Shown piece by piece: positions 1,257 through 42,164 of a DNA stretch of 64,000 nt. The position numbers and the translations under genes were made by a program. The DNA is from a virus (taxonomy: Duplodnaviria; Heunggongvirae; Uroviricota; Caudoviricetes): the IMG/VR virus record IMGVR_UViG_3300005527_000046, positions 1 through 64,000 of that record, one strand, 5' to 3'. Each line of letters starts with the position of its first letter. Position 1 is the first letter of the stretch. A model generated the notes under the pieces. That model was not told the origin of the DNA and made no database searches. It saw only the letters and a program-made list of their open reading frames with translations.

Positions 1257-2030
1257 ATGAGATTTCAACCTCTTAGTGATATTCATTTAGAGTTTTATAA
1301 AGATAGTAGTACTGTAAAAATAAAAGATACTGATAGTGACTGTATTATTTTAGCTGGTGATATACATACTAAAACAAGAGCTATTAAATGGTTGTTAGAT
1401 CAAAAGATTAATAAGCCAATATTTTATATATGTGGTAATCATGAGTTTTATGGAACTAACTGGCCTAGAAATATAGATAAGTTAAAAGAAGCTGCCAAAG
1501 ACACAAATATACATGTATTAGAAAATGATTATTATATTTTTAAAGATTGGATAATCTTAGGCTGTACTTTGTGGACAGATTATAAATTATTAGAACCTAT
1601 TGTTCCTCAACAATTAGCAATGTCTGCTTGTTTTAAAGGAATGAATGATTTTTATAAAATTAGAAATAGTAATTTTGGCTATAAAAAGATTATACCCTCT
1701 GATTTATTACATGCTCATTATGAATCTGTTGATTTTTTAAAGACATACTTAGAAGTATTTAATGGATGTAATATAGCTGTATTAACACATCATACTCCTT
1801 CTATAAAATGTATTGATCCTACATATCATAAAGATATTTTAAGTGCCGCTTATGCTTCTAACTTAGATGAGTTTGTTGCTTATAGTGGGGCTAAGATTTG
1901 GTTTACAGGTCATACTCATTATAAGTATAAAAAGTTTATGCTTGGAGACACATTATTGGTATCTAATCCAATGGGTTATTTAAATTATATTAATGAAGAT
2001 TTTGATCCTAAACAAGTAGAAGAAGTGTAA
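1257..2030 (+). CDS. calcineurin-like metallophosphoesterase
   Basis: Motifs LAGDIH, GNHEFYG, GHTH in the order typical of binuclear metallophosphoesterases. Confidence 0.6.
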   Translation: MRFQPLSDIHLEFYKDSSTVKIKDTDSDCIILAGDIHTKTRAIKWLLDQKINKPIFYICGNHEFYGTNWPRNIDKLKEAAKDTNIHVLENDYYIFKDWIILGCTLWTDYKLLEPIVPQQLAMSACFKGMNDFYKIRNSNFGYKKIIPSDLLHAHYESVDFLKTYLEVFNGCNIAVLTHHTPSIKCIDPTYHKDILSAAYASNLDEFVAYSGAKIWFTGHTHYKYKKFMLGDTLLVSNPMGYLNYINEDFDPKQVEEV

Positions 2031-2377
2031 TGAGTAATCATTTAGAAGAAGAAACAAAAGATAATATTATAAGACATTTAATAATAAAGATTGATGTTTT
2101 AAAAGAAGATAAAAGAGCACTCTATAAAGTAATTGAAGATGCACAACAAAAGATTTATAAATTAAAACATATTATTAATGATTTTACAAATCTTACTGTT
2201 AAGCCTAAATTTGAAATTGGAGATAAAGTAAATATATTTCTTGATAGTGATACTACTTATGTAATTCAAGACTATATGTATGAACAGTCTTACCCAGTCT
2301 ATAATATAATTCCTCTTGGTAGCACAAGTGAAGATGATATTGAAACAGTCTCAGAAATGGACTTAATAAAAATATAA
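2030..2377 (+). CDS. hypothetical protein
   Basis: ORF track; start overlaps stop of the upstream gene (ATGA). Confidence 0.45.
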   Translation: MSNHLEEETKDNIIRHLIIKIDVLKEDKRALYKVIEDAQQKIYKLKHIINDFTNLTVKPKFEIGDKVNIFLDSDTTYVIQDYMYEQSYPVYNIIPLGSTSEDDIETVSEMDLIKI

Positions 2378-2570
2378 ATACAATAGAAAGTCATTAATAT
2401 ATGAATAAAAAAGATGTTTTTATGATAAGTATAAATAAAGAAGATGTAAGACAAATTGTAAATGAGCAGATTGAATTACATGAAAGCAAAGGAAGAAAGT
2501 ATGGATATCTAGGCTTATGTATATTTCTTTCTACATATATGTTTCTTTTATATCTAATTGTGGCTAAACA

Positions 2571-3224
2571 ATGAAGGATCTTATAATTAATGCATATCCT
2601 TGTAAATATCTAATTGCAGTTCAAGATAGTTCTGAGAACTATGTAATTGAGTCTAAAAGTATATTTAATTGGGTAATTACTAAGAAGGATGATACTAATA
2701 ATGTATTAGAAAAGGATCTTTCTTGGGTCAACTATTTATCAGCAAAGGACAAAAATAATTACTTATTTAACACTTTTGAAGATGCTTTTGCCTTTCTTAA
2801 GTTATATATACATCATCAAGAAATAATAAATCATCAATTAGAGATGCATAAAAAAGAACTACACTTACTAAAACAAGAGTTTGATGTAGATCCTATTTAT
2901 GCTGTTGGTGATCTTTATTTAGATCTTGATGTTTGTATATCTCCAACAGATATTGAAGATATATTAAAAAGATATTCAGTCTTTATTAGTGGCATTGTAA
3001 ATAAAAGTGGTAATCCTTTTGGTGGTGTGCAAATTACAATTAGATCCCTCTCTGAGTTGTTATTTATTGAAGATACTTTAAAAAAGATTCAAAAAGATAA
3101 CAACTATGAGATTGTAAATTACTTTAATTTTAGTCAACCCTCAATATCAAAGACAGCCCCTTTATGTTATTATTGGCAGGTTTGTGACACTTATACTAGA
3201 CATTTTACTTTTATTAAAAAGTAA
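2571..3224 (+). CDS. hypothetical protein
   Basis: ORF track; a small upstream membrane-peptide ORF (about 2401..2573) ends in an ATGA overlap with it. Confidence 0.5.
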   Translation: MKDLIINAYPCKYLIAVQDSSENYVIESKSIFNWVITKKDDTNNVLEKDLSWVNYLSAKDKNNYLFNTFEDAFAFLKLYIHHQEIINHQLEMHKKELHLLKQEFDVDPIYAVGDLYLDLDVCISPTDIEDILKRYSVFISGIVNKSGNPFGGVQITIRSLSELLFIEDTLKKIQKDNNYEIVNYFNFSQPSISKTAPLCYYWQVCDTYTRHFTFIKK

Positions 3225-3705: not shown

Positions 3706-3716
3706 AAAGTTATTAT

Positions 3717-4037
3717 ATGAAAGATGTAAGCCTTCAAAGAGAGATGTTGACTCTTTTAAATAATAAAATAGAAGATTTAAAAGAGCAAATTAGATTAAAA
3801 GATGTAATAAATAAAGAATTAACAAAGATAATAGAACAACAAGAGACTATAATAAAGTCTCTTGTTTTAACAATAAAAACTCCTAAATATAAAAGAAAGG
3901 ATATTGTTTCTATTGTAGGAGAAGGTGATGAAAGATATACTGTTGAAGGTTGTTCTTCTTATTTTCCTGTTTATACTTTAACTAGTATTATAGATAATTC
4001 TGTAAGAGAATCTATATTAGAATGTGAAATAGTTTGA
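3717..4037 (+). CDS. hypothetical coiled-coil protein
   Basis: ORF track. Confidence 0.4.
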   Translation: MKDVSLQREMLTLLNNKIEDLKEQIRLKDVINKELTKIIEQQETIIKSLVLTIKTPKYKRKDIVSIVGEGDERYTVEGCSSYFPVYTLTSIIDNSVRESILECEIV

Positions 4038-4175
4038 CATGTTAATGTAAATGTGTTATAAGTATATTAATACTATATTAGTAAAGTAGAAGCTAATTAA
4101 GTTTAGTGCCAGAAGTTAATATCTGGTACAAGTAAAAATCTTGTTGCTTGCGATGATATATAGTATTAATAATAA

Positions 4176-4300: not shown

Positions 4301-5032
4301 TTACTTTTTCTTTTTATAATCAACTTCTAATTTAATACATCTTTTTTTTACAGCATTATCACTTACATCAAATATCTTTCCTATATAAACCATAGGATAT
4401 TTATCTACTAATTCTTGTAGTTCTTCTTTTGTAACTTCAAATTTTAAAGGACGTGAAAAGTTTACTTTATTATTTATCTTAGAGCATTTACCACATCTTG
4501 TAGATTTTATATGTATATTACAGTTACAATCTACACATTTGTTTTGAATGATCTCTTTTCTTCTTCCTCTACCAGCATAAGTTTCTGTTTGAGTGTGACA
4601 GTTAGGACATAAGAATCTAAGATTTTCTAATCTATTATCACTATTAATTCCATTAATATGATCTAATTGAAGAACTAATTCTTGATTATTCCAATGTCCA
4701 GGGTTATTACAAATAGAACATTTATATTTTAATAGATTTTCTTTTACTAATCTTCTTTTTAGATCTTGTCTGCTATATGTGGAATTTTCTACTAATATTT
4801 TATCTAAATCAAGAGCATTAATCCCTCCAAAAGATTTTGCTTTTCTATTTTTATTTAACTTGTCTAAAGATAAACTATCTTCTTTTATTCTATTGTTTAA
4901 TTCTTTGTAATTATTTCCATGAAGAGACATATCAATTTTTAAAAGAACTTCAGCTAAAGTATTACAGCTATTTAATATATCTTGTAATTTATCTTTATCT
5001 AATTTCCAAATTGTATTATGCATACTTTTCAT
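4301..5032 (-). CDS. HNH homing endonuclease with extra Cys-rich zinc-binding region
   Basis: HNH motif LDHINGINSDNRLENLRFLCPNCH; additional CxxC pairs; opposite strand to neighbours, adjacent to tRNA island. Confidence 0.7.
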   Translation of the reverse strand: MKSMHNTIWKLDKDKLQDILNSCNTLAEVLLKIDMSLHGNNYKELNNRIKEDSLSLDKLNKNRKAKSFGGINALDLDKILVENSTYSRQDLKRRLVKENLLKYKCSICNNPGHWNNQELVLQLDHINGINSDNRLENLRFLCPNCHTQTETYAGRGRRKEIIQNKCVDCNCNIHIKSTRCGKCSKINNKVNFSRPLKFEVTKEELQELVDKYPMVYIGKIFDVSDNAVKKRCIKLEVDYKKKK

Positions 5033-5665: not shown

Positions 5666-6195
5666 TATATAAAAATATCTTTATCAGATCCAACGCTAGT
5701 GCAAGACTAGGGGTTTAGTAAAGTGGATGGTTTACTTGTAATTTGTCAGCCATAAAGTCCGGCCCTATTGGTATAAAGATATATGAAGTACAGCAAAGGT
5801 TTAGGGTTTTAACAAAGTATATTTGTGGCCTGTTAATGTGATGGCTGGAACTTCTAAAACTAGAACCTATAAAGAATAGGAACAGCTATTAGATGGTGAA
5901 CTTGGCAAGCCTTTTGTATTTAAACAGAATAAAACTGTTTGTAATGCAGAAGAAAGATTTACATCTGTTTGGAATTATTAATATATGGACCCAATCTCTA
6001 TAGGAGTTGCTATGTTTATTGGTTGTTTGTTTTTTAAAACACAGCAAGATATGTTTATTGAGGAACAAAAGAAGTCTGCTTCTAAACCACAACAACAGAC
6101 TTCTTCTCAACAACAAAGAAAACCACCACAAACAAATAAGACTATTACTAAATGTCCTCATTGTGGTGGTAGTTTAGATAATGAAAAAGATTAAT

Positions 6196-6738
6196 TTAAG
6201 GGCTTAGTTTTTTAAGATATTTGGCTACTGTTTTATCTGAAACACCTAAATATTCTGCAACTGCTAATTTAGTTTTTAATTTAGAATATAAATCTAATAA
6301 ATCAATAGATTCCCAATCTAATTTCTTTTTACTTTGTTGAGAACATTTTGTAGAACAATATTTATGAGATTTTAATTTTGTATTATTACATAAAGGACAT
6401 TTATCATAATATTGCTTAAACTTATAATCCGCAAATTCTTCATTGAATGAAGTAAATATATTAGGTAAAATAGCTTTATCATTATGTATTTCTCTATGAC
6501 AATTAGAACAAAGCAATATGCATTTTCTAAGTTCTTTTATAACTGTTTCCCAGGAACCACAGTTTGCTCTAAGTTTACTTAAACTATGTTCTTTTTCATT
6601 TGGATCTATATGATGTAATTCTAAAGCCTCATGACATTTATTGTAACTACATATTTGACAACAGCCTCCCATAGATTCTACAATTCTAGATTTAGAATTC
6701 TTTCTCCAGTTTTTTACTTGTTCAGATTTTATAGTCAT
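6196..6738 (-). CDS. HNH homing endonuclease with C-terminal HTH
   Basis: Motifs GGCCQIC...HHID...N...LLCSNCHREIH; C-terminal LAVAEYLGVSDKTVAKYLKKL helix-turn-helix; opposite strand to neighbours, inside the tRNA island. Confidence 0.65.
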   Translation of the reverse strand: MTIKSEQVKNWRKNSKSRIVESMGGCCQICSYNKCHEALELHHIDPNEKEHSLSKLRANCGSWETVIKELRKCILLCSNCHREIHNDKAILPNIFTSFNEEFADYKFKQYYDKCPLCNNTKLKSHKYCSTKCSQQSKKKLDWESIDLLDLYSKLKTKLAVAEYLGVSDKTVAKYLKKLSP

Positions 6739-6815
6739 ATATTTATCTGTACTTGTATTAATACAATAACAAATAATGTTATTAAAATGTATTCAGATTC
6801 ATATAATACAAATCT

Positions 6816-6844
6816 TTGACAAGTGTTTATTATTAATATATAAT
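6816..6844 (+). promoter_or_regulatory. sigma70-like promoter TTGACA-17-TATAAT upstream of the tRNA at 6862
   Basis: TTGACA 6816-6821, 17-nt spacer, TATAAT 6839-6844. Confidence 0.5.
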
Positions 6845-6861
6845 AAACACTATAAATATAA

Positions 6862-6998
6862 TGTTTAGTAGCTCAGTTGGTAGAGCGTCTGACTGTGGCT
6901 TTTTAGTTTAATGTAAAACTATAGTTAACTATATTATAGGTTCAATTCCTATAAAGGTCTTAATCAGAATGTCCCTGGTTCGATTCCAGGCTAGACAG
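6862..6998 (+). tRNA. tRNA gene interrupted by a roughly 64-nt insertion in the anticodon loop (possible anticodon GUG or CUU depending on insertion point)
   Basis: Perfect cloverleaf apart from the loop: acceptor TGTTTAG/CTAGACA, D-arm GCTC-AGTTGGTA-GAGC, anticodon stem TCTGA (6888-6892) / TCAGA (6964-6968) separated by 71 nt, variable ATGTC, T-arm CCTGG-TTCGATT-CCAGG, discriminator G. Confidence 0.5.
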
Positions 6999-7450
6999 TT
7001 GCTATTAAAACAATAGCAAACAAACAACTAACTATAAAGGAGGTAACTGTGTTACTAGATATTATAATTGGTTAAAACAAATAGTAGTGGTGGAAAGATA
7101 TACACTCATATCATGCGTTAGGTTGTGGTCCTAAAGAAGCAGTAAAATGAAAGATGATTGACAAGTGTACATAGTTAATTAGATCGCATGTGGTATGGAT
7201 TGGGCACAAGTATAGGGTTAAATTCCCTACCTACTATTTCTCTTAAACATGTAGTAATAGATATACAAATATATATATATATGATTTTATAGAAGCTTCT
7301 ATGAGTATGGCTGACTATAACATTGAGTATTATACTATTAACTCTCATAGAGTATAATGCAGATTCAATAAGAAAGTGTTAACTATACCATATTTAGTCC
7401 TCTTTCTTATATATCCCTTTGTATATTACTACATGTTTATTTTTCTACAA

Positions 7451-7523
7451 TCTGGAAACGTCTAACGGTCTGACAGCACACTTTGACTGTGTACAATTGG
7501 AGGTTCAAATCCTTCTTCCAGAG
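7451..7523 (+). tRNA. tRNA-Gln (anticodon UUG)
   Basis: Acceptor TCTGGAA/TTCCAGA, D-stem GTC/GAC, anticodon stem GCACA/TGTGT with loop CTTTGAC, T-arm GGAGG-TTCAAAT-CCTTC, discriminator G. Confidence 0.7.
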
Positions 7524-7581
7524 TAGTTATTTATATATAACAAGGAGGTTATTATGTCAGATATGGAATATTAATAAAACT

Positions 7582-7815
7582 ATGATAAAAGTAGATCTTA
7601 AATTTAATAAAGAGAGTGACGGTCAACATAGTTATATACTATCTTTTACTTCTGATAAGAATAAAGATAAATATGCTGACATTGAGTTTGTTAATGATGG
7701 TGAAATATTAACAGGTAAAACAGATAGGATTAATCCTTCTGAAATTAAAACTATTACAACAGAATCTTTGTTTGATGTATTAGAAGATTTAATTAAATTT
7801 ATGAATAAAGATTAA
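7582..7815 (+). CDS. hypothetical protein (ORF-track start 7483 trimmed to the first ATG downstream of tRNA-Gln)
   Basis: ORF track 7483..7815 overlaps tRNA-Gln; AAGGAGG at 7543-7549 upstream; ATG at 7582. Confidence 0.45.
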   Translation: MIKVDLKFNKESDGQHSYILSFTSDKNKDKYADIEFVNDGEILTGKTDRINPSEIKTITTESLFDVLEDLIKFMNKD

Positions 7816-8060
7816 TGAAATTAAAGTATTTTTTTATTCTCTTTATCCGACTCTTTATAGTAGTCGGATTTTTAATGACTATTATTTATTTGTTAGCCCT
7901 TGCAACTAAATTGATAATAGGTAGTAATTTAATGATTATTGCTGGCATATGTTTATATGTTGTATGTGTAGGGTTGATAGTTATCTTTTTAGAGGTAGCT
8001 AAAGACTTTTGGGTATTCTTGTGTAAATTTATTAGGCGGATGTTTAACTTGTATGATTAA
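7815..8060 (+). CDS. small integral membrane protein (two predicted TM helices)
   Basis: Hydrophobic composition; ATGA overlap with upstream gene. Confidence 0.5.
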   Translation: MKLKYFFILFIRLFIVVGFLMTIIYLLALATKLIIGSNLMIIAGICLYVVCVGLIVIFLEVAKDFWVFLCKFIRRMFNLYD

Positions 8061-8916
8061 TAAAAAAGTAGTTATTCCTTTTTTTGCTGGTCTTGTTGGA
8101 GTTGTTAGTGTTGCTTGTGGTTCAGTTCCTGAACCTGGAGAAACAGTATTAAAAGTATATAAAGCTGGTGATAATGCTGGGTTTGAAAAAGCAGAAATTG
8201 TTACTGGAAACTATGGAAATGACTTGAATGTAGTATATTACAAAATTAATAATAAGATTGTTAATTATGTTTATACTAATAGTATGACAGAAGGTAGAGC
8301 AGCAGATGAATCTATTAAATTTAGAACATCTGATGGTTTTGTAATGAGTTCTAATATAGGCATCTCTTATATTATTGTAGATCCTAAAAAGTTTCTATCT
8401 GTGCAGAAGATGGAAGATGAAAGCTTAACATTAGGGCCTCTATATATCCTACTTAGAGATAAAGTAAATAGTATTGGTAATACTTATTCCTTGAATGATC
8501 TAATTGCTATTCCTGGTCAAACTAATAAGCTTAATAACACTTCAAAAACTCTTGCTGATTTCCAAGCAAATGTTCTAAAACAATTGAATGAAGAAACAGC
8601 TAAATATGGTGTTAAGGTACTTAGTGTTACTTTTGTAAATGGTTTTACTCCTCCTAAAGAAATTGCTGAGCAGGTTCTAAATAGTCAAATGCAGCTTATT
8701 GAGACTCAAAAACAGACTAGCCTTTCTCAAACTAAAGCAACTCAGTATGAAAGTGAATTGAGGGCTGCTAATGCTAAACTTCAACTAGCAAAGATTGAGG
8801 CGGAAACAAGAAAGCTTGATTCAGTTGGTGTAACTAATGAATATGTAACTCTGCAAGTCATTGCTCTTCTTAAAGAGAAGTGGAATGGCAGCTTTGTTAT
8901 TATTGATGGTAAGTAA
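8053..8916 (+). CDS. SPFH/band-7-like lipoprotein
   Basis: Lipoprotein-type signal FAGLVGVVSVAC; segment IKFRTSDGFVMSSNIGISYIIVDPKKFL resembles the SPFH core; C-terminal coiled coil. Confidence 0.45.
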   Translation: MINKKVVIPFFAGLVGVVSVACGSVPEPGETVLKVYKAGDNAGFEKAEIVTGNYGNDLNVVYYKINNKIVNYVYTNSMTEGRAADESIKFRTSDGFVMSSNIGISYIIVDPKKFLSVQKMEDESLTLGPLYILLRDKVNSIGNTYSLNDLIAIPGQTNKLNNTSKTLADFQANVLKQLNEETAKYGVKVLSVTFVNGFTPPKEIAEQVLNSQMQLIETQKQTSLSQTKATQYESELRAANAKLQLAKIEAETRKLDSVGVTNEYVTLQVIALLKEKWNGSFVIIDGK

Positions 8917-8972
8917 TTAGTTTAATATTAACTCTGTTAGTATATAATTAACAGAGTTAATATTATAATAAT

Positions 8973-9182
8973 ATGATTGATACTATTGCTTCAAGTGAAG
9001 AATATGGATACATATATAAAAGAATTAGAATTACAAATATAAGCTCTTTACCTCTTACTATATCTTTTAAATATAATATAGAAGTTGAAAAGAAAAAGGT
9101 TAAAAACTTATTAGCCAATAGACATGAATACAAAGCAAGTAGGACTGATTTAGATATATATGGAAACCAAATATTTCATTGA
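8973..9182 (+). CDS. hypothetical protein
   Basis: ORF track. Confidence 0.35.
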   Translation: MIDTIASSEEYGYIYKRIRITNISSLPLTISFKYNIEVEKKKVKNLLANRHEYKASRTDLDIYGNQIFH

Positions 9183-24975: not shown

Positions 24976-26288
24976 AGTACAAATTTTGCCTAGTTTTATA
25001 TGTTAATTTTAGAGTAAACTACTTTTATAAATTATTATAAAAGTAGTTATGACATACTCTCAAGAATTAAGAAATATAGCTTTAGAAATGTATCAATCCG
25101 GAATTAGTTCAAGCAATATAGCTAATGAATTAAATATAAATCCTAGAACCGTTTTAAACTGGATACCTAAAGAACTTATAAGATCTATAATACCTCCTTA
25201 TTCTAAAGAAGTAATAGATAAAGTTTTAGATATGTATAATTCAGGCTTAAGTGCTAATAATATAGCAATTAAATTAGGATTAAATAAAAAAACCGTTCTA
25301 AGATGGATTCCTAAAAACCTTAAAAGATCTGTAAAGGATTATGATTTAGGTTATGAAAGAAACCATAACTTTTTTAGAGATATTAAATCTGAACAACAAG
25401 CTTATTTTTTAGGCTTAATAACCGCAGATGGAAGTATATCTAAAACAGGAACATTAGGCTTAGAATTAAAGCATTCTGATGGTTATTTAATAGAAAAATT
25501 TAGAGATCTTTTATCTCCTAATGCTAAAATAAGTTTTTCATCTAGAACTAAAGTATATAAAGGAAATTCTATAATAAGTGAAACTAGCTATCTTAAAATC
25601 ACTTCTAGACATTATTTAGAAGATTTAGCAAGATATGATATTGTTCCTAATAAAACTTATCTAGATATAAGATTACCTATTTTTGATTCAAATTTAATGA
25701 ATCATTATATAAGAGGTTTATTTGATGGAGATGGAAGTGTTTATACTCGTAGTAAATATAAATCTTTATTAACTGTTACTTTTGTTGGTGGAGAGCTTTT
25801 ATTAAATCAAGTAAAAGACTATTTAAAATTAAATTTAGATCTAAAAGGAAATCTTAATATAAGAGCAAGACAAACTAATTGTTTTGATTTTTCTTTAACT
25901 ACTCAAGAAGATATACATAAGTTTAAAGAATACATCTATAAAGATGCAACTATATTTCTTAAAAGAAAACATGCAAAATTTTATAATGAAATTATTGCCA
26001 CATAAGTCTGTGAATTGCTGGGATAACTTGAAGGTTAATTAACTACAACATAATTAGTAATAATAAGTGTGAATGTTTAAAAATAATTAATTATAAGTCA
26101 ATCAGCAGCCAAGTGTCCTAGTAATAGGATAAAGGTTCAACGCATAGTACATGGAGTCCTATTTATATAGGATAGTAAAGTACCAAGAGTGCAGACTACT
26201 AGTTAAACTTAACTGGTAAAGATATATGCTGGACTACTAAGTGATTAGTAGAACTAAGGGATAAAAAGCCTTTAGGTTAACAAAATTG
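24976..26288 (+). mobile_element. candidate group I intron carrying a LAGLIDADG homing-endonuclease ORF, inserted in the Pnkp P-loop codons
   Basis: Last exon base U, last intron base G (26288); GC-rich structured 3' part (26006-26288) with GACUA-type and AAGAUAUA-type core-like elements; internal ORF 25049..26005. Confidence 0.5.
25049..26005 (+). CDS. LAGLIDADG homing endonuclease with two N-terminal HTH repeats
   Basis: Two LAGLIDADG motifs (YFLGLITADGSI and IRGLFDGDGSVY); duplicated N-terminal module (SxISSSNIANELNINPRTVLNWIPK / LSANNIAIKLGLNKKTVLRWIPK). Confidence 0.75.
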   Translation: MTYSQELRNIALEMYQSGISSSNIANELNINPRTVLNWIPKELIRSIIPPYSKEVIDKVLDMYNSGLSANNIAIKLGLNKKTVLRWIPKNLKRSVKDYDLGYERNHNFFRDIKSEQQAYFLGLITADGSISKTGTLGLELKHSDGYLIEKFRDLLSPNAKISFSSRTKVYKGNSIISETSYLKITSRHYLEDLARYDIVPNKTYLDIRLPIFDSNLMNHYIRGLFDGDGSVYTRSKYKSLLTVTFVGGELLLNQVKDYLKLNLDLKGNLNIRARQTNCFDFSLTTQEDIHKFKEYIYKDATIFLKRKHAKFYNEIIAT

Positions 26289-28628
26289 AAGAGTTTCATT
26301 TCAAAAGAATTAGAGTTACAACTAAAAGCTAATAATACTGATGTTACTATTCTTTCATCTGATGATATTAGAAGAGAATTATTAGATGATTATAGTATTA
26401 ATAAATATGATCCAAGAATGCTTGAAGTGTCTTCTCAAGCTTTTAATTTGTTATATGCTAAGCTTAGAAATTACATCAGTTATCCAGTAAATAAGAAGTT
26501 TGTAATCATTGATAATACTGGTTTGAACCAACAATTTAGAACTGACATTCTTAACATCTGTAGAGATAATAATTATAAGGTTGTCTGTATCTTGTTTGAT
26601 TATAAGAACGGAGAAGACTGGTTTGTTAATGATGGTGGTGATAAGTTTGTTATTCAAAAGCATTTAGACAGATTGCAGAAACATGTGTTTAAAGAACTGA
26701 AAGCTAAAGACTATCACAAAGTTATAAGAGTCACAGATAGGATTGAAAGTGTTAATGTTACTTATATACAAGATAAGAATAACTTACTTGTAGATGGTAA
26801 TAACTACACTGTCATTGGTGATGTTCATGGTTGTGTTGATGAGTTAAAACAGCTTATTAGTAACATTAAAGATGAACATAATGTGCCAATCTTGATGGGT
26901 GATTGGATTGATAGTAAACTTGGCAGCGTAAGTTGTAATGCAGCTATTATTGATTACTTATTAGATAATCCTCAAATACTACTTGTTAAAGGTAATCATG
27001 AAGAGAACTTATATAAGAATTTAAATGACTTAACACGGGAGAAATTAGATAATAAATTCTTTAATAGTAGACAATTAATCTATGACTTTCCAGAGTATAA
27101 GACTAAGTTTATAGAACTTTATAATAGAAGTTATACTAGTATTAGAGGTCAAGGCTTTATTGTTACTCATGCTCCTTGTAAGAGTAAGTACTTGTTAACA
27201 AGTCTTAATAAGATGACTAACTTATATTATACGACTGAAGAGAAGTGTGATCTTATTAATGAGATATATACTGACAAGTATTATAATAGCTGCTGGCCTC
27301 TTCACTTATATGGTCATCTAACATTTGATAGACCTGTTAAGACTAGATTTAGTATTGGTCTTGACACTGGTGTTGGTTATGGTGGTGTGTTAACTGGTTA
27401 TAATGTTGCTACTAGAAAGTTTATTATTGTTCAATCTACCTTAGATAATAGTCTTAAACAACTTGATAATCTTACTAAGTTTAAGTATCCTGTACAAGAC
27501 TTAGAAGTTAAGTTAGATGATGATGATACTAGAAAGTTAAGTAGTTTTATCAGAAACAAGGTGCCTTATATCAGTGGAACTATGTGTCCTGCTGATAAGA
27601 CTGAAACAACCTTAGAAGATATTAAAACTGTGTTAGCCTACTATGCTTCTACTGGACAAACACAAGTGTTAATACAACCTAAATACATGGGTAGTAGAGC
27701 ACAAGTATTATTAACTAGAAATAGTTATGAGGTGTTTACTAGAAGTGGCTTTAAGTTAAAACATACACCTGAATTAGACACTGCTATACAAGCACTAGAA
27801 GATAATGTATCCAATGAGTTAATGACTTGGCTTAATAGTTTAGGGCCTTATACTTCAACATTATTAGATTGTGAGTTGATGCCTTGGTCTTATCTTGGTA
27901 AAGGTTTAATTGAGGATACATTTGAATCTTATTATTATAGTCATAAGTTACACATTGAAGCTATGATTAAACATGGTTTTTATACTGATTTAGAATCTTA
28001 TAAGATTAGTGATGATTATGTTAATAAGGTGCCATCAGCAAACAAACAAGTTGGTAATCTTAATCAATGGAGAAACACTAGTAATCTAGATAATCTAAAT
28101 ATCTTTGGCACTGAACTAGATAAGTATGCCTCAACTGAAGCACCTTACTTTGTTCCTTTTAATATTCTTAAAGTTGAGTCTGAAGATAAAATTCTTTATA
28201 GTAATAGTGAGTTTAATAGATTTAATAACTTTGAGTTGTTAAGCTTATTACAAACACCATTACATGTGGTTGATGTTAATGATTTAACAGAAGGGATAAA
28301 AGTACAAAACTTATATAGTCACCTCGAAGGTATTGTTGTTAAACCTTACTACAATATTGAAGGCCAAGCACCATATATTAAAGTTAGAAACATAGATTAT
28401 TTAAGATTAGTTTATGGTCATGACTATACTTCTAAGTTGGATAAGTTCATTGATAAGAAAAACATTAAAGGTAAACTTAGGGTGTCTATTAATGAATGGC
28501 AACTTGGTAATGCTTTATTAGATATGCATTCCTCTGAGTTTGTTGAATCTAATAAAGAGTATGTTAATACTTTAATTAGACTAATGTTTGAGTTGAAAAA
28601 AGAACAAGGACTAGATCCAAAATTATAA
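26289..28628 (+). CDS. pnkp: Pnkp exon 2: polynucleotide kinase - metallophosphoesterase phosphatase - ligase-like RNA repair enzyme (ORF track 26286..28628 with apparent TTG start)
   Basis: N-terminus aligns with T4 Pnk after the P-loop (KSFISKEL...SSDDIRREL); central GDVHGC / GDWIDS / GNHE metallophosphatase motifs; C-terminal KYMGSRA nucleotidyltransferase-like motif; no ATG start and no P-loop in this ORF. Confidence 0.65.
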   Translation, partial: KSFISKELELQLKANNTDVTILSSDDIRRELLDDYSINKYDPRMLEVSSQAFNLLYAKLRNYISYPVNKKFVIIDNTGLNQQFRTDILNICRDNNYKVVCILFDYKNGEDWFVNDGGDKFVIQKHLDRLQKHVFKELKAKDYHKVIRVTDRIESVNVTYIQDKNNLLVDGNNYTVIGDVHGCVDELKQLISNIKDEHNVPILMGDWIDSKLGSVSCNAAIIDYLLDNPQILLVKGNHEENLYKNLNDLTREKLDNKFFNSRQLIYDFPEYKTKFIELYNRSYTSIRGQGFIVTHAPCKSKYLLTSLNKMTNLYYTTEEKCDLINEIYTDKYYNSCWPLHLYGHLTFDRPVKTRFSIGLDTGVGYGGVLTGYNVATRKFIIVQSTLDNSLKQLDNLTKFKYPVQDLEVKLDDDDTRKLSSFIRNKVPYISGTMCPADKTETTLEDIKTVLAYYASTGQTQVLIQPKYMGSRAQVLLTRNSYEVFTRSGFKLKHTPELDTAIQALEDNVSNELMTWLNSLGPYTSTLLDCELMPWSYLGKGLIEDTFESYYYSHKLHIEAMIKHGFYTDLESYKISDDYVNKVPSANKQVGNLNQWRNTSNLDNLNIFGTELDKYASTEAPYFVPFNILKVESEDKILYSNSEFNRFNNFELLSLLQTPLHVVDVNDLTEGIKVQNLYSHLEGIVVKPYYNIEGQAPYIKVRNIDYLRLVYGHDYTSKLDKFIDKKNIKGKLRVSINEWQLGNALLDMHSSEFVESNKEYVNTLIRLMFELKKEQGLDPKL

Positions 28629-28662
28629 ATAATAATAATAATAATAAAGGAGAAATAACAAT

Positions 28663-28878
28663 ATGCCTTTCTGGAAAGCAAGAGTACTTGATCATGATGA
28701 TTAAGGTAGAGAGTCTGAATCTGTATACTATGTATCAGAACCAGATGAATTAGAAGCTTTACTTACTACATATGATGTTCATAGTATGAGTGATGATTTG
28801 CATGAAGGGACAGATGATGTTCCTAATGTTGATTTAAAAGAGATTAATGATGATACTGCTAGTAAATCAGGCGGCTAG
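28663..28878 (+). CDS. small acidic protein whose frame from an RBS-preceded ATG contains an in-frame TAA at 28702-28704 (MPFWKARVLDHDD*GRESE...SGG)
   Basis: AAAGGAG at 28646-28652; 13 codons, TAA, then 58 open in-frame codons to TAG with no early alternative start. Confidence 0.35.
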
Positions 28879-29199
28879 ATTAGTAACTTCTTTGGTAGGC
28901 AATAAATAAACTATTACAAGTTAGTTGTAGCAATATAATTAACTTGTAATAGCTATAATAAGGTATTAATTAATATGTATTTAATTGTGGCTGGTTTAAG
29001 TGATTTAGATGATATTGATACTGCTAAGTATGCAGATATAAACACCAATAAAAAAGGCTTCTGTTGCTATTAGGTATGCTCAAATAATGACAAGTAGAAC
29101 TGATGAAGGTACTTATGATAATGCTTTTGTTTATGAGTTAAAGAGTAATAGTATTAAATTGTTATCAGCAAGTTATAGACGTAAAGAGAATGGTTTAAT

Positions 29200-30408
29200 A
29201 TGATAATTGACGTTAATTCTAGCAACTTTAACATGTCTTACATTCTTAATAAGAATCCTAGTAGTGGCTTGCTTATTAGAGATTGTAGAAAGGGTTTTGT
29301 AGTGGGTAAGTATGTTAATCCTTTAACATATATGGCTGTCTTTGAAGAAGGTACTGGACAGGATTCCTTTGAGAAAGAAGGTAATTATTTAGTTTATAGA
29401 GGTTATTGTTCTGCTGAAGCTGCTCTTACAGTAATAACAGCATTGTTTGATTGTATTAAAAAAGATAGTAATAATAAGTATGAGGAAGGACCTTCTTTAA
29501 ATACTATTACTATTAAATGTTTAGATATTGATGTTAAACATTTATCTATATTTAACACTGAAAGCTTTAACATTACAGAGTATACAATAGCTGATAATTG
29601 TAATTTAGTACAATTAAATGTTACTAATAATAGTAGTTTAATTGATGTTTTAAGGTATACAGCTTTAATTCTATTCATGCAACTTGTTAAGGATAATGTG
29701 AGTTATCTAACACTTGATCAAGTTAATGTTTATGCTAACATCATCAAAAAAAATGACAACATTCCTTTTATTGTTAGACATAGATTTAGAGGCATTCTTG
29801 AAGATAATATGTCTAAAAAAGTAGTACCTTTATTAAATAATGATTCAATTAAACTATCTAATATTGGCAGAAATGAACAACAAAGATTTGCATTTGTAAG
29901 TCAACACATTTTATTTAAAAATAGTGTTTTAGATATTGGTTGTGGTCCTGGAAAATATATTAAAGTGTCTAAAGCTGCAAAATATGTTGGTGTAGATATA
30001 GATGAAAAGTGTATTGAAAAAGCTAAAACTAAGGCTAGCCATTTGAATGTAGATGCTTCCTTTTATACTGATTGGGCATTTGCTTTAGAACAATTAACAG
30101 AGCCTACAACAGTCCTTTTAATAGAGTTTATTGAACATATTGAAAAGGATGTAGCAATGCTTATATTAGAAAAACTTTGTTTATGTGAACAGGTTAAGCA
30201 AATACTTATTAGTACTCCTAATAAAGATTTTAATAAGCACTTTAATATTGCAGATGATGGTCTTAGGTTTGAAGACCATATCTATGAAATGACAGAAGAG
30301 GAGTTTAAAAGACTTCCTGGAAAAGATATAACTTGGGGAGATTCAGTTGATGGATGTCCTATGACTTTGTATAAAGATTTAAGATTAGAGGTAAGTATTC
30401 TTGACTAG
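29200..30408 (+). CDS. hen1: Hen1-like RNA 3'-terminal 2'-O-methyltransferase (MTase domain in C-terminal half)
   Basis: SAM motif I VLDIGCGPGKY; Hen1-specific metal-binding motifs LLIEFIEHIEKD (E-x-x-E-H) and RFEDHIYEMTEEEF (H-x-F-E-x-T-x-x-E-F); located immediately downstream of Pnkp as in bacterial Pnkp-Hen1 operons. Confidence 0.7.
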   Translation: MIIDVNSSNFNMSYILNKNPSSGLLIRDCRKGFVVGKYVNPLTYMAVFEEGTGQDSFEKEGNYLVYRGYCSAEAALTVITALFDCIKKDSNNKYEEGPSLNTITIKCLDIDVKHLSIFNTESFNITEYTIADNCNLVQLNVTNNSSLIDVLRYTALILFMQLVKDNVSYLTLDQVNVYANIIKKNDNIPFIVRHRFRGILEDNMSKKVVPLLNNDSIKLSNIGRNEQQRFAFVSQHILFKNSVLDIGCGPGKYIKVSKAAKYVGVDIDEKCIEKAKTKASHLNVDASFYTDWAFALEQLTEPTTVLLIEFIEHIEKDVAMLILEKLCLCEQVKQILISTPNKDFNKHFNIADDGLRFEDHIYEMTEEEFKRLPGKDITWGDSVDGCPMTLYKDLRLEVSILD

Positions 30409-31573
30409 TTTATTAGCATATCAACAACCAGATGGCAGTATTGATTTTAGAAGTAATGCTGCTACTTGTCCTAAGGTAAAAGCCGGCGTTTATAGAGCTT
30501 TAAATTCTATGGACAGAGGAATTTATTTAAGTCCTACAACTGAATTTAAATATCTAGATGAATACTTTCTATTAGATGAATTTGAAGAGTTAGTCTTAGA
30601 AAGTTTTAAACAGTCTAATAAGAGTTTAGCTGTTATATATCTTGGTCTTAAGGGTAGTGGAAAAACTAAAAGGGCGCATAAACTGGCCCTAGACTCAGGA
30701 ATGCCAGTGCTAATTATTGATAACTTAGATATTATTAATAGTCAACGTTGGAATGATATTGTTGGCAGTGATACATTAAATAACTGGATCATCTTTGTGG
30801 ATGAGTATGAAAAGAAGTTAGACAATGATAATTCAGTTGCCTTCTTAAATTGGCTAGACGGGTCAGTTAGTACTAAGCAATTGTTTATATTGATTGGCAA
30901 TGAACAAGCTAAGACTAAGTATAGTGATCCTCTTTTAGATAGACTCTCAAGGGTCTTATGGAAGAAAGAATTTGGCTCATTAACCAATGAGCATGTTGAA
31001 ACATTAGTAAATAAACTCTCCAAGAGAGAAGAAAAGTCTGAGTTATTAGATCTGCTTAATAATATTCCTGTGTTGTCTATGGATAATACGATGCAGATTA
31101 TTAGAATAACTAATATGTTTCCAGATAGGTCTATTGAGTCTTTACTTACTAAACTAAATATTAGCTTTAATAGTGTTGAAGAGTTTACATTTGTAGATGA
31201 GTTTTATAAACCTTTAACATATGGTGAAGATCATATTGGACTAACTATTACTAGAAGTGGTCCTATACTTAATGTTGCAAGAATTATTAGATTCTATATA
31301 GAATCTGATGATATTATAGAAAGGTTTAACCCTGAAGATAGTGATAAAAAGATCTATAGAATAAAGGTTGAAGCTCCTGCAAAGACTATTAAACTTACTA
31401 AAGTTAGTAGATTTATATATAAATTTGAAGCTCCTTATAGTGTTTGTTATAATTATACAGAGTGGGATGAAGATGCGTGGCAGCCTTCTGACAAAACTAT
31501 GACTGTATTCTTATATAAAACAATGGCCTGGAATTTATTAGCTAATCCTAATAGTAATACTTACTATATGTAG
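30401..31573 (+). CDS. P-loop NTPase (Walker A GLKGSGKTK, Walker B IIFVDEYE), translationally coupled to hen1
   Basis: Walker motifs; 8-nt overlap with upstream gene. Confidence 0.5.
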   Translation: MTSLLAYQQPDGSIDFRSNAATCPKVKAGVYRALNSMDRGIYLSPTTEFKYLDEYFLLDEFEELVLESFKQSNKSLAVIYLGLKGSGKTKRAHKLALDSGMPVLIIDNLDIINSQRWNDIVGSDTLNNWIIFVDEYEKKLDNDNSVAFLNWLDGSVSTKQLFILIGNEQAKTKYSDPLLDRLSRVLWKKEFGSLTNEHVETLVNKLSKREEKSELLDLLNNIPVLSMDNTMQIIRITNMFPDRSIESLLTKLNISFNSVEEFTFVDEFYKPLTYGEDHIGLTITRSGPILNVARIIRFYIESDDIIERFNPEDSDKKIYRIKVEAPAKTIKLTKVSRFIYKFEAPYSVCYNYTEWDEDAWQPSDKTMTVFLYKTMAWNLLANPNSNTYYM

Positions 31574-39393: not shown

Positions 39394-39936
39394 ATGGGTT
39401 GTTGGACTGAGACTTGTGTTTTATCTGATAGACCTTTAGGCTACAAACATACAGAAGAAAGTAAAAAGATTATGTCTGAAAAGAAAAAAGGTATTAAACA
39501 AACTTCTGAAAATATAGCAAAAAGGATAGAGGGTATGAAAGGTCGTAAACATTCAGAACAGACTAAAGAAAAAATGCGTCAGAGTAAATTAGGAGAAAAG
39601 AATCCTATGTTTGGTGTAAAATATTCTGAAGAAAAAAGAAATGAAAAAGTAGCAAATATGCTATCAGTTACTAGATGGAATAAAGGTAAAACAAAAGAAA
39701 CTGATCCTTTAATGGCTAAACTTTCAGAGAAATTAAAAGGTCGTTCTGTCTACAACAGTTTAAAATGCAGATTAATTAATTTAGAATCTCTTGAAGAGTG
39801 GATTGCTGATTCTATAATAAAACTATCAGAAGGATGTCCATTAAGTTTAGCTTCTTTAAATAGATTAAAATCAAATAAAAACTGTCAAACAAAATTACTC
39901 AAGCAATATAAATTGGAAATTATTAATGAAAGTTGA
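39394..39936 (+). CDS. NUMOD3-repeat DNA-binding protein (probable homing-endonuclease remnant lacking a nuclease domain)
   Basis: Repeats KHTEESKKIMSEKKKG, KHSEQTKEKMRQSKLGEKNPMFG, KYSEEKRNEKVANM resemble NUMOD3 modules of GIY-YIG/HNH homing endonucleases; no GIY-YIG or HNH motif present. Confidence 0.4.
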   Translation: MGCWTETCVLSDRPLGYKHTEESKKIMSEKKKGIKQTSENIAKRIEGMKGRKHSEQTKEKMRQSKLGEKNPMFGVKYSEEKRNEKVANMLSVTRWNKGKTKETDPLMAKLSEKLKGRSVYNSLKCRLINLESLEEWIADSIIKLSEGCPLSLASLNRLKSNKNCQTKLLKQYKLEIINES

Positions 39937-40979: not shown

Positions 40980-42164
40980 ATGACAGATTATAGATACTGT
41001 AAACTTATTATGATTACAGATGATAATCATAATAAGTATTATGAAATGCAGGAAACTAGTGAAAACATACAAATTAAATATGGGCGAGTTGATAGCTCTT
41101 GTATTACTATTACTAAGCCTATAAGTCAGTGGAATTCTTTAATTAAAAGTAAGTTAAAGAAAGGATATAAAGATGTTACTGATTTAGTTGCTATTGTTAA
41201 GGATGACAGTAAACCTAGAACTTTATTGTATAGCCAAGAATTATATGATATTTTTCTTAAAAAGATGATGGATTATAGAGATGGTCTTGTATCTTCTACT
41301 TACAGTGTTAAGGCTAATCAAGTTACTAGAAAGCAACTAGAACAGGCTCAGTTGTACATTAATGAATTAGCAAAAATAAAGACTGATTATGAATTAACAG
41401 AAGAAGATATAAAGAGTATTAATAACTTATTAATACAGTTATATACAGTCATTCCTAGGTATATGAATAAGGTTCAAAACTATTTAATACCTAATATTAG
41501 TCTTAATAACTTAGTACAAAAAGAACAAGATAATCTAGATGCTATTTCTTCTCAAGTTATAGAAGAGATACAGGAAAATACAGATGAGAAAACTACATAT
41601 TCTCCAGCAGAGCAGTTAGGTATAAAGATATCTAAAGTTGATAGTTCACCCACTGAAATTGAATATATCACTAAGCAAATATCCAAAAAGATAAAAGGTT
41701 TGTTTGAAGTAGAAATACCAAAACATAAAAATAAATACAGATCTTATTTAGAGTCTAATGCACAAAAACAACAAGATAACTCTAAATACTTAATACACGG
41801 TACTAGATGTAGTTCTGTTATTCCTATTATTGAGCAAGGCTTAAAGATTAGGCCTAGCGGCAATTATCATTATTCTGGAAAGGTATATGGAGATGGTAAT
41901 TACTTCTCAGAAGTAGTTAATAAATCCTTAGGATATACAGGCAATGATAATGATAAGATATTATTAATATATCAAGTATATATTGGTACTCCTTTTATTT
42001 ATAAAGGATGGTTTAGAGGTAATTCATTTGAACTAAGCTATGATGAATTAAAGAGTAGAGGTTATGATAGTACCTTTGTAAAGGCTGGCAACGGTCTTTT
42101 AAATAGTGAGATTATTGTTTATAAAGAAGAACAAGCTCACCTTAGATATATAATTTGGCTCTAA
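40980..42164 (+). CDS. PARP-like ADP-ribosyltransferase (C-terminal catalytic domain)
   Basis: H-Y-E triad context: LIHGTRCSSVIPIIEQGLKIRP (His), GKVYGDGNYFSEV (Tyr), LLNSEIIVYKEEQAHLRYIIWL (Glu), collinear with PARP catalytic-domain blocks. Confidence 0.55.
   Translation: MTDYRYCKLIMITDDNHNKYYEMQETSENIQIKYGRVDSSCITITKPISQWNSLIKSKLKKGYKDVTDLVAIVKDDSKPRTLLYSQELYDIFLKKMMDYRDGLVSSTYSVKANQVTRKQLEQAQLYINELAKIKTDYELTEEDIKSINNLLIQLYTVIPRYMNKVQNYLIPNISLNNLVQKEQDNLDAISSQVIEEIQENTDEKTTYSPAEQLGIKISKVDSSPTEIEYITKQISKKIKGLFEVEIPKHKNKYRSYLESNAQKQQDNSKYLIHGTRCSSVIPIIEQGLKIRPSGNYHYSGKVYGDGNYFSEVVNKSLGYTGNDNDKILLIYQVYIGTPFIYKGWFRGNSFELSYDELKSRGYDSTFVKAGNGLLNSEIIVYKEEQAHLRYIIWL

Follow-up and report, generated by a model that had tools for sequence, protein, structure and literature searches.

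A tRNA-shaped insert within the anticodon of a phage tRNA-Asn gene and its possible excision by tRNA end-processing enzymes

An interrupted tRNA-Asn gene in a Caudoviricetes phage

The stretch analyzed here (hereinafter the window) comprises 64,000 nucleotides (nt) of a Caudoviricetes phage (positions 1 to 64,000 of the IMG/VR record IMGVR_UViG_3300005527_000046) and carries, at 6862–6998 on the plus strand, a tRNA-Asn(GUU) gene that is split within its anticodon by a 64-nt insert, which is itself shaped like a tRNA. The window is AT-rich (~28% GC), densely packed phage DNA, the full phage genome is ~216 kb, and the closest cultured relatives, as judged by one conserved protein, are Cellulophaga phages (37–46% amino-acid identity). 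A first-pass annotation, made from the letters of the sequence, had proposed an otherwise canonical tRNA gene with a 64-nt insertion in its anticodon loop, and this is borne out by the sequence, by the intron mode of ARAGORN and by in-silico splicing. The tRNA-Asn(GUU) identity of the gene, the placement of the insert between nucleotides 35 and 36, the tRNA shape of the insert as a whole and the presence of phage-encoded RNA ligases go beyond that annotation.

The 5′ exon (6862–6896, plus strand) supplies the 5′ strand of the acceptor, the D arm, the 5′ strand of the anticodon stem and C32, U33, G34 and U35, as recognized from the sequence, ARAGORN and identity to intact tRNA-Asn. The 3′ exon (6961–6998, plus strand), delineated from the sequence and by in-silico splicing, supplies U36, A37 and A38, the 3′ strand of the anticodon stem, the variable loop, the T arm, the 3′ strand of the acceptor and G73. 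In the acceptor, TGTTTAG (6862–6868) faces CTAGACA with seven of seven positions paired, one of them as U-G. The D arm reads GCTC-AGTTGGTA-GAGC, the variable loop is the 5-nt ATGTC, and the T arm is the canonical CCTGG-TTCGATT-CCAGG. The anticodon stem, TCTGA (6888–6892) with TCAGA (6964–6968), is a perfect 5-base-pair (bp) helix with its strands 71 nt apart, as had been claimed. The discriminator G73 corresponds to G6998, and CCA is encoded neither in this gene nor in any other tRNA gene of the window. Both exons are without flaw, with all stem pairs of the outer tRNA intact and standard.

About 18 nt upstream, a promoter scan recovers a putative sigma-70-type promoter (6816–6844, plus strand) of the form TTGACA-17 nt-TATAAT that matches the consensus at 12 of 12 positions. 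Directly 3′ of the gene, an 8-bp hairpin TTGCTATT-AAAAC-AATAGCAA, without a T run, can be read from the sequence (6999–7019, plus strand) and might serve in 3′ processing or in termination. TTGACAAGTGT, the sequence at the −35 region of the tRNA-Asn promoter, recurs without change at 7158 and is followed by a T-arm-like hairpin TAGGG-TTAAATT-CCCTA (7213–7229); no tRNA or Rfam family is called in the interval 7158–7240 that holds both.

In its default mode, ARAGORN reports four tRNAs in the window and misses this gene; with introns allowed, it places a tRNA at exactly 6862–6998 with a 64-nt intron, and after the in-silico removal of 6897–6960 it calls tRNA-Asn(GTT). The outer cloverleaf (tRNA, RF00005) with its 7-nt anticodon loop is complete only once 6897–6960 is taken out. 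Excising exactly the element that the Rfam model defines joins CTGT to TAA, yielding the loop CUGUUAA with the anticodon GUU. The predicted spliced RNA has GACUGU followed by UAAUCAGA across the junction, which at the DNA level is GAGCGUCUGACUGU joined to UAAUCAGAAUGUCC. The joined exons share 51 consecutive bases (tRNA nucleotides 8–58) with intact tRNA-Asn, for example that of contig L365 (contigs and loci other than the window are given here as L numbers). A scan with the spliced-junction sequence finds intact tRNA-Asn genes containing it in at least 120 viral contigs, and in blastn the two halves align next to each other on annotated, uninterrupted tRNA-Asn genes of cultured phages.

The identity elements read by asparaginyl-tRNA synthetases are the anticodon GUU and G73, along with U1-A72 of the E. 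coli type. All are present in the window gene, with T6862-A6997 as U1-A72. The intron mode of ARAGORN labels the window gene as Lys and its relatives as His or Ser, and these intron placements are artefacts of the unusual 35/36 position. The His or Lys identities that follow from such placements were rejected on account of the discriminator G73, the lack of a G-1 and the identity of the joined exons to intact tRNA-Asn.

The insert is itself tRNA-shaped

The insert (6897–6960, plus strand) starts with GGCUUUUUAG and ends at the discriminator T6960 without a CCA. The first-pass annotation had suggested a covariance-model check of this region, and the Rfam tRNA model indeed matches 6897–6960 from end to end (model positions 1–71) with 43.1 bits against a gathering score of 29 (E 8e-6 over the whole window and 7e-8 in a local search). 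The inner acceptor GGCTTTT/AAAGGTC has 7 bp, two of them G-U; the inner D arm is GTTT-AATGTA-AAAC, and the inner T arm, ATAGG-TTCAATT-CCTAT, has a 5-bp stem and the T loop TTCAATT. The T-arm-like hairpin noted earlier within the insert is therefore present, though as one part of a whole tRNA fold. The inner anticodon arm is replaced by a closed hairpin ATAGT-TA-ACTAT with a 2-nt turn and no anticodon, so that the inner element does not form a full cloverleaf with a 7-nt anticodon loop: it is tRNA-like but unable to decode. It does possess the features of an RNase P and RNase Z substrate, namely a 12-bp stack of acceptor and T arm, a T loop and a single-stranded discriminator. At minimum free energy, the 137-nt precursor takes up the nested cloverleaf structure.

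The insert separates the anticodon nucleotides U35 and U36, away from the canonical site at 37/38. The window sequence would allow a border shifted by one T; however, homologous inserts that end in CCA (see below) leave no such ambiguity, and hence the site is 35/36, inside the anticodon.

The anatomy of the insert fits no known intron class. As had been surmised, it is too short for a group I intron, the P3–P9 core of which takes ~200 nt or more, and it has no match to Intron_gpI at the gathering score or at E up to 10. The same search of the insert region up to E 10 returned no match to Rfam ribozyme or intron families other than tRNA, and a ribozyme was accordingly set aside. A bulge-helix-bulge (BHB) intron, with its two 3-nt bulges on a 4-bp helix, is not what inspection of the junction finds: there a helix is followed by an internal loop, with 4 nt opposite 1+3 nt, and then by a second helix, at the site 35/36. 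A permuted or split trans-spliced gene, which the first-pass annotation had entertained, is contradicted by the two halves being collinear, in cis and 64 nt apart, with one strong (12/12) promoter upstream of both. Nor do the flanks belong to two separate tRNAs, an outcome that would have undone the original interpretation, as they pair only with each other and the extra fold is nested inside them.

Homologous inserts in other phages

We scanned IMG/VR and metagenome contigs with degenerate patterns and filtered the matches by in-silico splicing. The window's locus recurs unchanged in many metagenomes that contain this phage, and samples rich in it include SRR9659493, JGI 3300032116 and ENA ERZ27247957. 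Beyond this phage, at least four lineages carry tRNA-shaped inserts at the same site, of which three have them in tRNA-Asn and one in tRNA-Lys(UUU). In L134, two split tRNA-Asn genes in tandem have full tRNA-like inserts homologous to that of the window. A further set of split tRNA-Asn genes, hereinafter group A, comprises L122/L159, L125/L170, L166/L169 (human gut metagenome) and L178. The tRNA-Lys case, which surfaced via a D-arm pattern, lies on the minus strand at 1798–1941 of L266 (IMGVR_UViG_3300001598_000062), where CTTT and TAA flank a CCA-ending tRNA-shaped insert, again at 35/36. Judging from these sequences, the target common to the Asn and Lys inserts looks like U35/U36-A-A.

All full tRNA-like inserts lie directly after U35 and have G as their first base; U(-1)/G(+1) is the preferred context for RNase P. 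In every homologous insert, in-silico excision gives an exact 7-nt loop. A CCA follows the discriminator of the insert only if the outer tRNA gene has an encoded CCA as well (group A and L266); with no CCA in any tRNA gene (the window and L134), the insert stops at its discriminator. No second tRNA-Asn accompanies the split gene in the covered part of the group A arrays, which hold up to 19–20 tRNAs. Where that part is large enough (L122 and L159), a separate tRNA-His is present, which further speaks against a His identity for the split genes. The outer tRNA-Asn of the lineages with a homologous insert retains U1-A72 and G73, and its stems change by compensatory substitutions. As for other RNAs at these loci, a ROOL RNA (335 bits) is found in L134 at 5761–6377 (minus strand), ~3.6 kb from the two tandem split genes, and tmRNA genes are embedded in the split-tRNA-Asn arrays of L159, L169 and L178 (group A) and of L158, which belongs to the second type described next.

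This second type, group B, interrupts tRNA-Asn at the same site in L120, L127, L133, L156, L158, L195 and L198. Its inserts consist of a conserved 5′ hairpin (ATA-stem-AGTAAA-stem-AAATC), an acceptor/T-arm minihelix and then one C. Inserts of this type measure 58–92 nt and come from rumen and gut phage contigs (L188 is also among the loci). L120 holds them on its minus strand at 1453–1613, 3925–4065 and 5772–5936; besides tRNA-Asn, a tRNA-Ala and what by eye is probably a tRNA-Thr (Gly according to ARAGORN) carry inserts of this kind in L120. In L195, a gene for a PD-(D/E)XK endonuclease abuts the split tRNA. The group B motif GU/AUA resembles an RNase E site, a likeness on which we do not rely.

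Searches with exact and degenerate patterns of the window's own intron junctions found no match in the IMG/VR collection scanned, from which this phage is missing. The first broad pattern retrieved only tRNA-Tyr/tRNA-Asn tandems and tRNA-Tyr introns of giant viruses, and a pattern for tRNA-Lys hosts gave chance matches only. Most of the other pattern matches are ordinary eukaryotic, giant-virus or archaeal tRNA introns. The pattern used on GTDB genomes recovered nothing beyond tRNA introns of archaea and two chance matches in bacteria, and no prophage copies. Among the complete phages of INPHARED there is no near match to window positions 6000–12,000; the window and group A queries match intact tRNA-Asn only, and the group B query has no match.

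Covariation and structural selection

For eight full precursors, RNAalifold recovers the acceptor, D, anticodon (spanning the insert) and T stems of the outer tRNA, together with the D, hairpin and T stems of the inner element, with compensatory double changes in 23 of 34 pairs. A manual parse and alignment likewise has the inner stems covarying across the 8 homologues. In the clean alignment, 94.2% of the cells of the inner acceptor, D and T stems are paired as compared to 67.5% in shuffles, none of 500 of which reach the observed value, and sliding the partners leaves at most 59% paired. Changes on both sides are seen in 10 of the 15 pairs of these stems, and positions 2–7 of the inner acceptor display 3–5 pair types each. 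What is kept across the homologues is the stack of the inner acceptor and T arm along with the T loop; the inner "anticodon arm" varies as a hairpin of 3–6 bp with a loop of 2–5 nt. Thus, the split tRNA is a real, recurrent feature under structural selection, and the features of the insert that are under selection are those that RNase P and RNase Z read.

RNA ligases and repair genes of the phage

The window codes for a 780-amino-acid (aa) Pnkp protein (26286–28628, plus strand) combining polynucleotide kinase, 2′,3′-phosphatase and ATP-dependent RNA ligase domains (Pfam PNKP_ligase, 2.6e-25; Metallophos; AAA_33). Its C-terminal domain matches 4xru_B, the Rnl of the Pnkp1-Rnl-Hen1 complex (E 4.6e-44). 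Downstream lies its partner Hen1 (402 aa; 29200–30408, plus strand), an RNA 3′-terminal 2′-O-methyltransferase with Hen1_N (Pfam, 1.9e-27) and methyltransferase domains, which matches 4xrp_C Hen1 (E 6e-21). The 4xru and 4xrp structures are of Capnocytophaga proteins. By domain content, the pair forms a complete Pnkp-Hen1 system, with kinase, phosphatase and ligase on one side and the Hen1 activating domain and methyltransferase on the other. The 570-nt gap between the two genes (28629–29199) has stops in all frames tried and short open reading frames (ORFs) only. An AAA ATPase gene (30401–31573) overlaps Hen1, and the three genes (26286–31573) look like an operon.

A second ligase belongs to the Rnl2 family (PF09414; 221 aa; motif KFDG) and is encoded at 3716–4381 of L481 (ENA ERZ27247957 k141_467024), a part of the same phage genome, ~5 kb upstream of window position 1 and 11 kb upstream of the tRNA. 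The L481 stretch also has a tRNA-Trp and a ribonucleotide reductase with an intein and a LAGLIDADG domain. On the strength of these domain matches, either the Pnkp ligase with Hen1 or the Rnl2-family ligase is a candidate for joining the exons.

A proposed excision-ligation pathway and its alternatives

The ends of tRNAs are cut by RNase P, 5′ of position +1, and by RNase Z, 3′ of the discriminator. The ends of the intron coincide to the nucleotide with the RNase P site (U(-1)/G(+1)) and the RNase Z site (then U) of the inner tRNA fold. As RNase P and RNase Z leave 3′-OH and 5′-phosphate ends that ligases of the Rnl2 and Pnkp types can seal, and the phage has two of these, we propose an excision-ligation pathway. 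The precursor would fold into two cloverleaves, one seated within the anticodon loop of the other. The host RNase P would cut 5′ of G6897, the +1 nucleotide of the inner acceptor, leaving a 3′-OH on the first exon, and the host RNase Z would cut after the inner discriminator T6960, leaving a 5′-phosphate on the second. The outer acceptor and anticodon stems would keep the exon halves together until a phage ATP-dependent RNA ligase, be it the Pnkp domain with Hen1 or the Rnl2-family enzyme, seals the nick between U35 and U36. Were Pnkp-Hen1 the joining enzyme, U35 might perhaps become 2′-O-methylated at the junction, a speculative route to a nuclease-resistant anticodon. Splicing itself, like the identity of the nucleases that cut and of the ligase that joins, is what we infer from these features. 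The pathway is further favored by the 7-nt loop that the two cuts would restore, the homologous inserts at one site in other lineages, the covariation, the agreement in CCA between insert and outer gene, the consensus promoter and the nested fold of lowest energy. We give about an even chance to the proposition that the locus specifies a functional tRNA-Asn(GUU) with a tRNA-shaped intron cut out by RNase P and RNase Z and its exons joined by a phage ligase. Among the earlier suggestions for the nature of the insert, an enzymatically removed intron is thus the one that fits best.

Several observations weigh against this pathway. In group A, the 3′ cut must fall after the encoded CCA. CCA is an anti-determinant for many RNase Z enzymes, and the Thermotoga RNase Z and E. 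coli RNase BN cut after it; hence, processing in this group would call for a different nuclease or for an atypical RNase Z. In group B, the 5′ hairpin precedes the minihelix and the RNase P site is inside the intron, so that the 5′ splice site of this group needs another explanation; moreover, an intact tRNA-Asn usually lies beside the split gene. The split gene appears to be the only tRNA-Asn in the window and in 8.7 kb upstream of it, which speaks for the pathway, but this search spans all but ~140 kb of the ~216-kb genome. A tblastn search with the window Pnkp and Hen1 and the L481 ligase returned nothing in the 1–15 kb available around each of the other split tRNAs, and Pfam searches of the larger of these neighborhoods found SPFH, AAA, dUTPase and HNH domains and no ligase. 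Conversely, Pnkp-Hen1 is also present in phages not known to have split tRNAs. Finally, the z-scores of the fold energy, −2.2 for the precursor and −1.6 for the insert by itself, are modest.

Part of this evidence would suit a real intron that is removed by a different route and whose ends are then healed and sealed by Pnkp-Hen1 or the host RtcB. The kinase and phosphatase healing modules of Pnkp are needed only for cyclic-phosphate/5′-OH ends, the PD-(D/E)XK gene abutting the split tRNA of L195 could supply a cutting enzyme, and both the position of the group A cut after CCA and the group B introns, with a 5′ splice site at the same position that RNase P cannot define, point in the same direction. 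Such a route is nonetheless unlikely: no BHB motif can be drawn, Rfam offers no ribozyme or intron family besides tRNA, no splicing-endonuclease gene is seen among the window ORFs scanned, and it would leave unexplained why the intron ends are RNase P and RNase Z sites and why their CCA correlates with that of the outer gene.

We are more doubtful still of a pseudogene, in which a tRNA-Asn would have been inactivated by the selfish or accidental insertion of a degenerate tRNA copy that is tolerated without any splicing. The flawless exons with every stem pair intact, the retained consensus promoter, the conservation of the outer U1-A72 and G73, the covariation of outer and inner stems across lineages, the exact 7-nt loop that removal of the insert always gives and the status of the split gene as the only tRNA-Asn in the covered part of each group A array are all hard to reconcile with decay. 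For it speak the silence of default ARAGORN on 6862–6998, the intact tRNA-Asn retained beside the split one at group B loci, the richness of the region in homing endonucleases and two other aberrant tRNA-like genes in the cluster (9855–9938 and 9969–10031), given which decayed tRNA genes may well exist there. Of the rivals, it is the pseudogene that the covariation and the exact loop restoration in independent lineages fit least; the inactivated gene considered in the first-pass annotation is likewise made unlikely by this recurrence and by the compensatory changes in outer and inner stems.

Very unlikely, lastly, is a locus from which RNase P and RNase Z set free the 64-nt RNA together with two tRNA-Asn halves that remain unligated, with one of these products functional and perhaps acting on a host anticodon nuclease or tRNA-binding defense protein as decoy or inhibitor: the conservation of the inner element as a tRNA-shaped RNA without an anticodon, its likeness to mascRNA (a tRNA-like RNA released by RNase P and RNase Z) and the choice of Asn and Lys, both classic anticodon-nuclease targets, would be in keeping with this, but it leaves the aminoacylatable features of the outer tRNA-Asn and the exact 7-nt loop unexplained, a free-standing tRNA-like gene would be a simpler means to the same purpose, and the genome encodes two RNA ligases.

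The adjacent HNH endonuclease and the wider genomic context

A free-standing HNH homing endonuclease gene (6196–6738, minus strand; PHROG HNH families) is divergently oriented with respect to the tRNA, with its start 124 nt away. Homologues that are 61–67% identical occur in the same divergent arrangement beside an intact tRNA-Asn(GTT) in L357, L361/L362 and L363, and U1-A72 and G73 recur in these intact genes; the shared synteny speaks for Asn in the window gene as well. The tRNA-Asn of L359/L360 lies against the opposite end of the HNH gene, and in L158 and L156 HNH homologues adjoin group B split tRNA-Asn genes. Hence, the family is linked to tRNA-Asn, with the insert present or absent by lineage and so subject to gain or loss. 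By analogy to collaborative homing, the insert may protect tRNA-Asn from the neighboring endonuclease.

Tentatively, and with somewhat less confidence than for the pathway in the window, we posit that these inserts form a new class of intervening sequence at position 35/36 of phage tRNA-Asn and tRNA-Lys that is excised by RNase P and RNase Z, depends on a ligase and persists or spreads with HNH endonucleases. The tRNA mimicry in the absence of a catalytic or BHB signal is the reason for assigning the excision to RNase P and RNase Z in this proposal, under which a 2′-O-methylated junction made with Pnkp-Hen1 could render the phage tRNA immune to anticodon nucleases.

Genes of the homing-endonuclease type are unusually dense in the window. 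There are three HNH genes (4301–5032 and 6196–6738 on the minus strand and 16153–16764 on the plus strand), a LAGLIDADG gene with helix-turn-helix domains (25049–26005, plus strand) and a NUMOD3 protein gene (39394–39936, plus strand) between dUTPase-like fragments and ThyX; a terminase-like ORF (57163–59349, minus strand) has a weak intein signal. A 3428-aa ORF (46037–56323, minus strand) with a Pfam Endonuclease_NS domain is flanked by an exonuclease gene and by a 275-aa ORF, itself followed by this terminase-like ORF. At 40980–42164 (plus strand), the phage encodes a protein with a PARP catalytic domain (2e-17) and a weakly matching WGR domain. In L358, an HNH-related contig, a Thg1-family (tRNA-His guanylyltransferase) gene is found at 1850–2575 (minus strand), ~1 kb from a tRNA-Lys.

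The two aberrant tRNA-like genes of the window are of different kinds. The one at 9969–10031 resembles tRNA-Thr(UGU) (Rfam, 46.3 bits), with a T arm reduced to a 3-bp stem and a 1-nt turn (AGATATCTGATC), a TATAAT of its own immediately upstream and a run of T downstream; the alternatives are a tRNA lacking its T arm and a pseudogene formed by deletion. The other, at 9855–9938, resembles a type-II tRNA-Tyr(GUA) and scores 29.9 bits, at the Rfam threshold; it has an 8-nt anticodon loop (CUGUAAAA) and an anticodon-stem mismatch, and ARAGORN is silent on it.

Comparison with known systems

If correct, the proposed pathway would add a further mode of intron removal, hydrolytic excision by RNase P and RNase Z with ligase sealing of 3′-OH/5′-phosphate ends, to group I/II self-splicing, spliceosomal splicing and splicing by the BHB endonuclease, and would be a natural counterpart of engineered tRNA-guide RNA (gRNA) arrays. 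It would also give the phage RNA ligases and Pnkp-Hen1, whose roles remain largely conjectural, a concrete housekeeping task, and the interruption of tRNA-Asn and tRNA-Lys would provide a link to anticodon-nuclease defense. Standard tRNA finders miss or mis-assign such genes, as ARAGORN does here in its default and intron modes, respectively; hence, phage tRNA repertoires are under-counted. Our literature search, the coverage of which was incomplete such that an earlier description is possible, found no description of tRNA-shaped introns in phage tRNA genes.

Group I introns in the anticodon loops of bacterial and phage tRNAs (tRNA-Leu, tRNA-fMet, tRNA-Arg and tRNA-Ile, among others) share with the phage insert the anticodon-loop site, a frequent association with homing endonucleases and a patchy distribution; however, they are at least ~200 nt long with a catalytic core, whereas the insert, at 64 nt, takes on the fold of a tRNA. 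Archaeal and eukaryotic tRNA introns, which are removed by a splicing endonuclease and rejoined by the ligases RtcB or Trl1, are similarly short, lie near or in the anticodon loop and have their exons held by the tRNA domain. Protein-catalyzed splicing with ligase rejoining is the respect in which the likeness of the insert to them is a proposal drawn from sequence. Unlike BHB introns, which are found at 37/38 and yield ends with a 2′,3′-cyclic phosphate and a 5′-OH, it sits at 35/36 in a sigma-70 setting and is predicted to leave 3′-OH and 5′-phosphate ends.

As to the neighboring endonuclease, Bonocora and Shub reportedly described collaborative homing in T-even phages, in which a free-standing homing endonuclease cooperates with an intron close by. 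The present locus resembles that arrangement in having a free-standing HNH gene beside a conserved gene with a small intervening sequence that could disrupt the target site, but it differs in that most homologues of the window HNH protein adjoin an uninterrupted tRNA-Asn.

In tRNA repair by the T4 Pnkp and Rnl1 against PrrC, by Pnkp-Hen1 and by Pnkp1-Rnl-Hen1, an ATP-dependent ligase closes a broken anticodon loop, as would be the case here. Those systems mend ribotoxin damage, whereas in the phage gene the break would be programmed by the gene structure and the ligase deployed for splicing. The tRNA-like processing elements, such as mascRNA of MALAT1, the MEN-beta tRNA-like RNA, the t-elements of plant mitochondria, the tRNA-miRNA units of MHV68 and synthetic tRNA-gRNA arrays, have in common with the insert an embedded cloverleaf with an intact stack of acceptor and T arm, no usable anticodon loop and, by prediction for the insert, ends set by the tRNA end-processing enzymes. 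These elements punctuate or terminate transcripts, and their flanks are never rejoined; in contrast, the phage insert lies inside a tRNA anticodon, and its flanks must be religated if a functional molecule is to result. By analogy, then, the system would work most like the tRNA-like elements released by RNase P and RNase Z, such as mascRNA and the t-elements, combined with phage tRNA repair.

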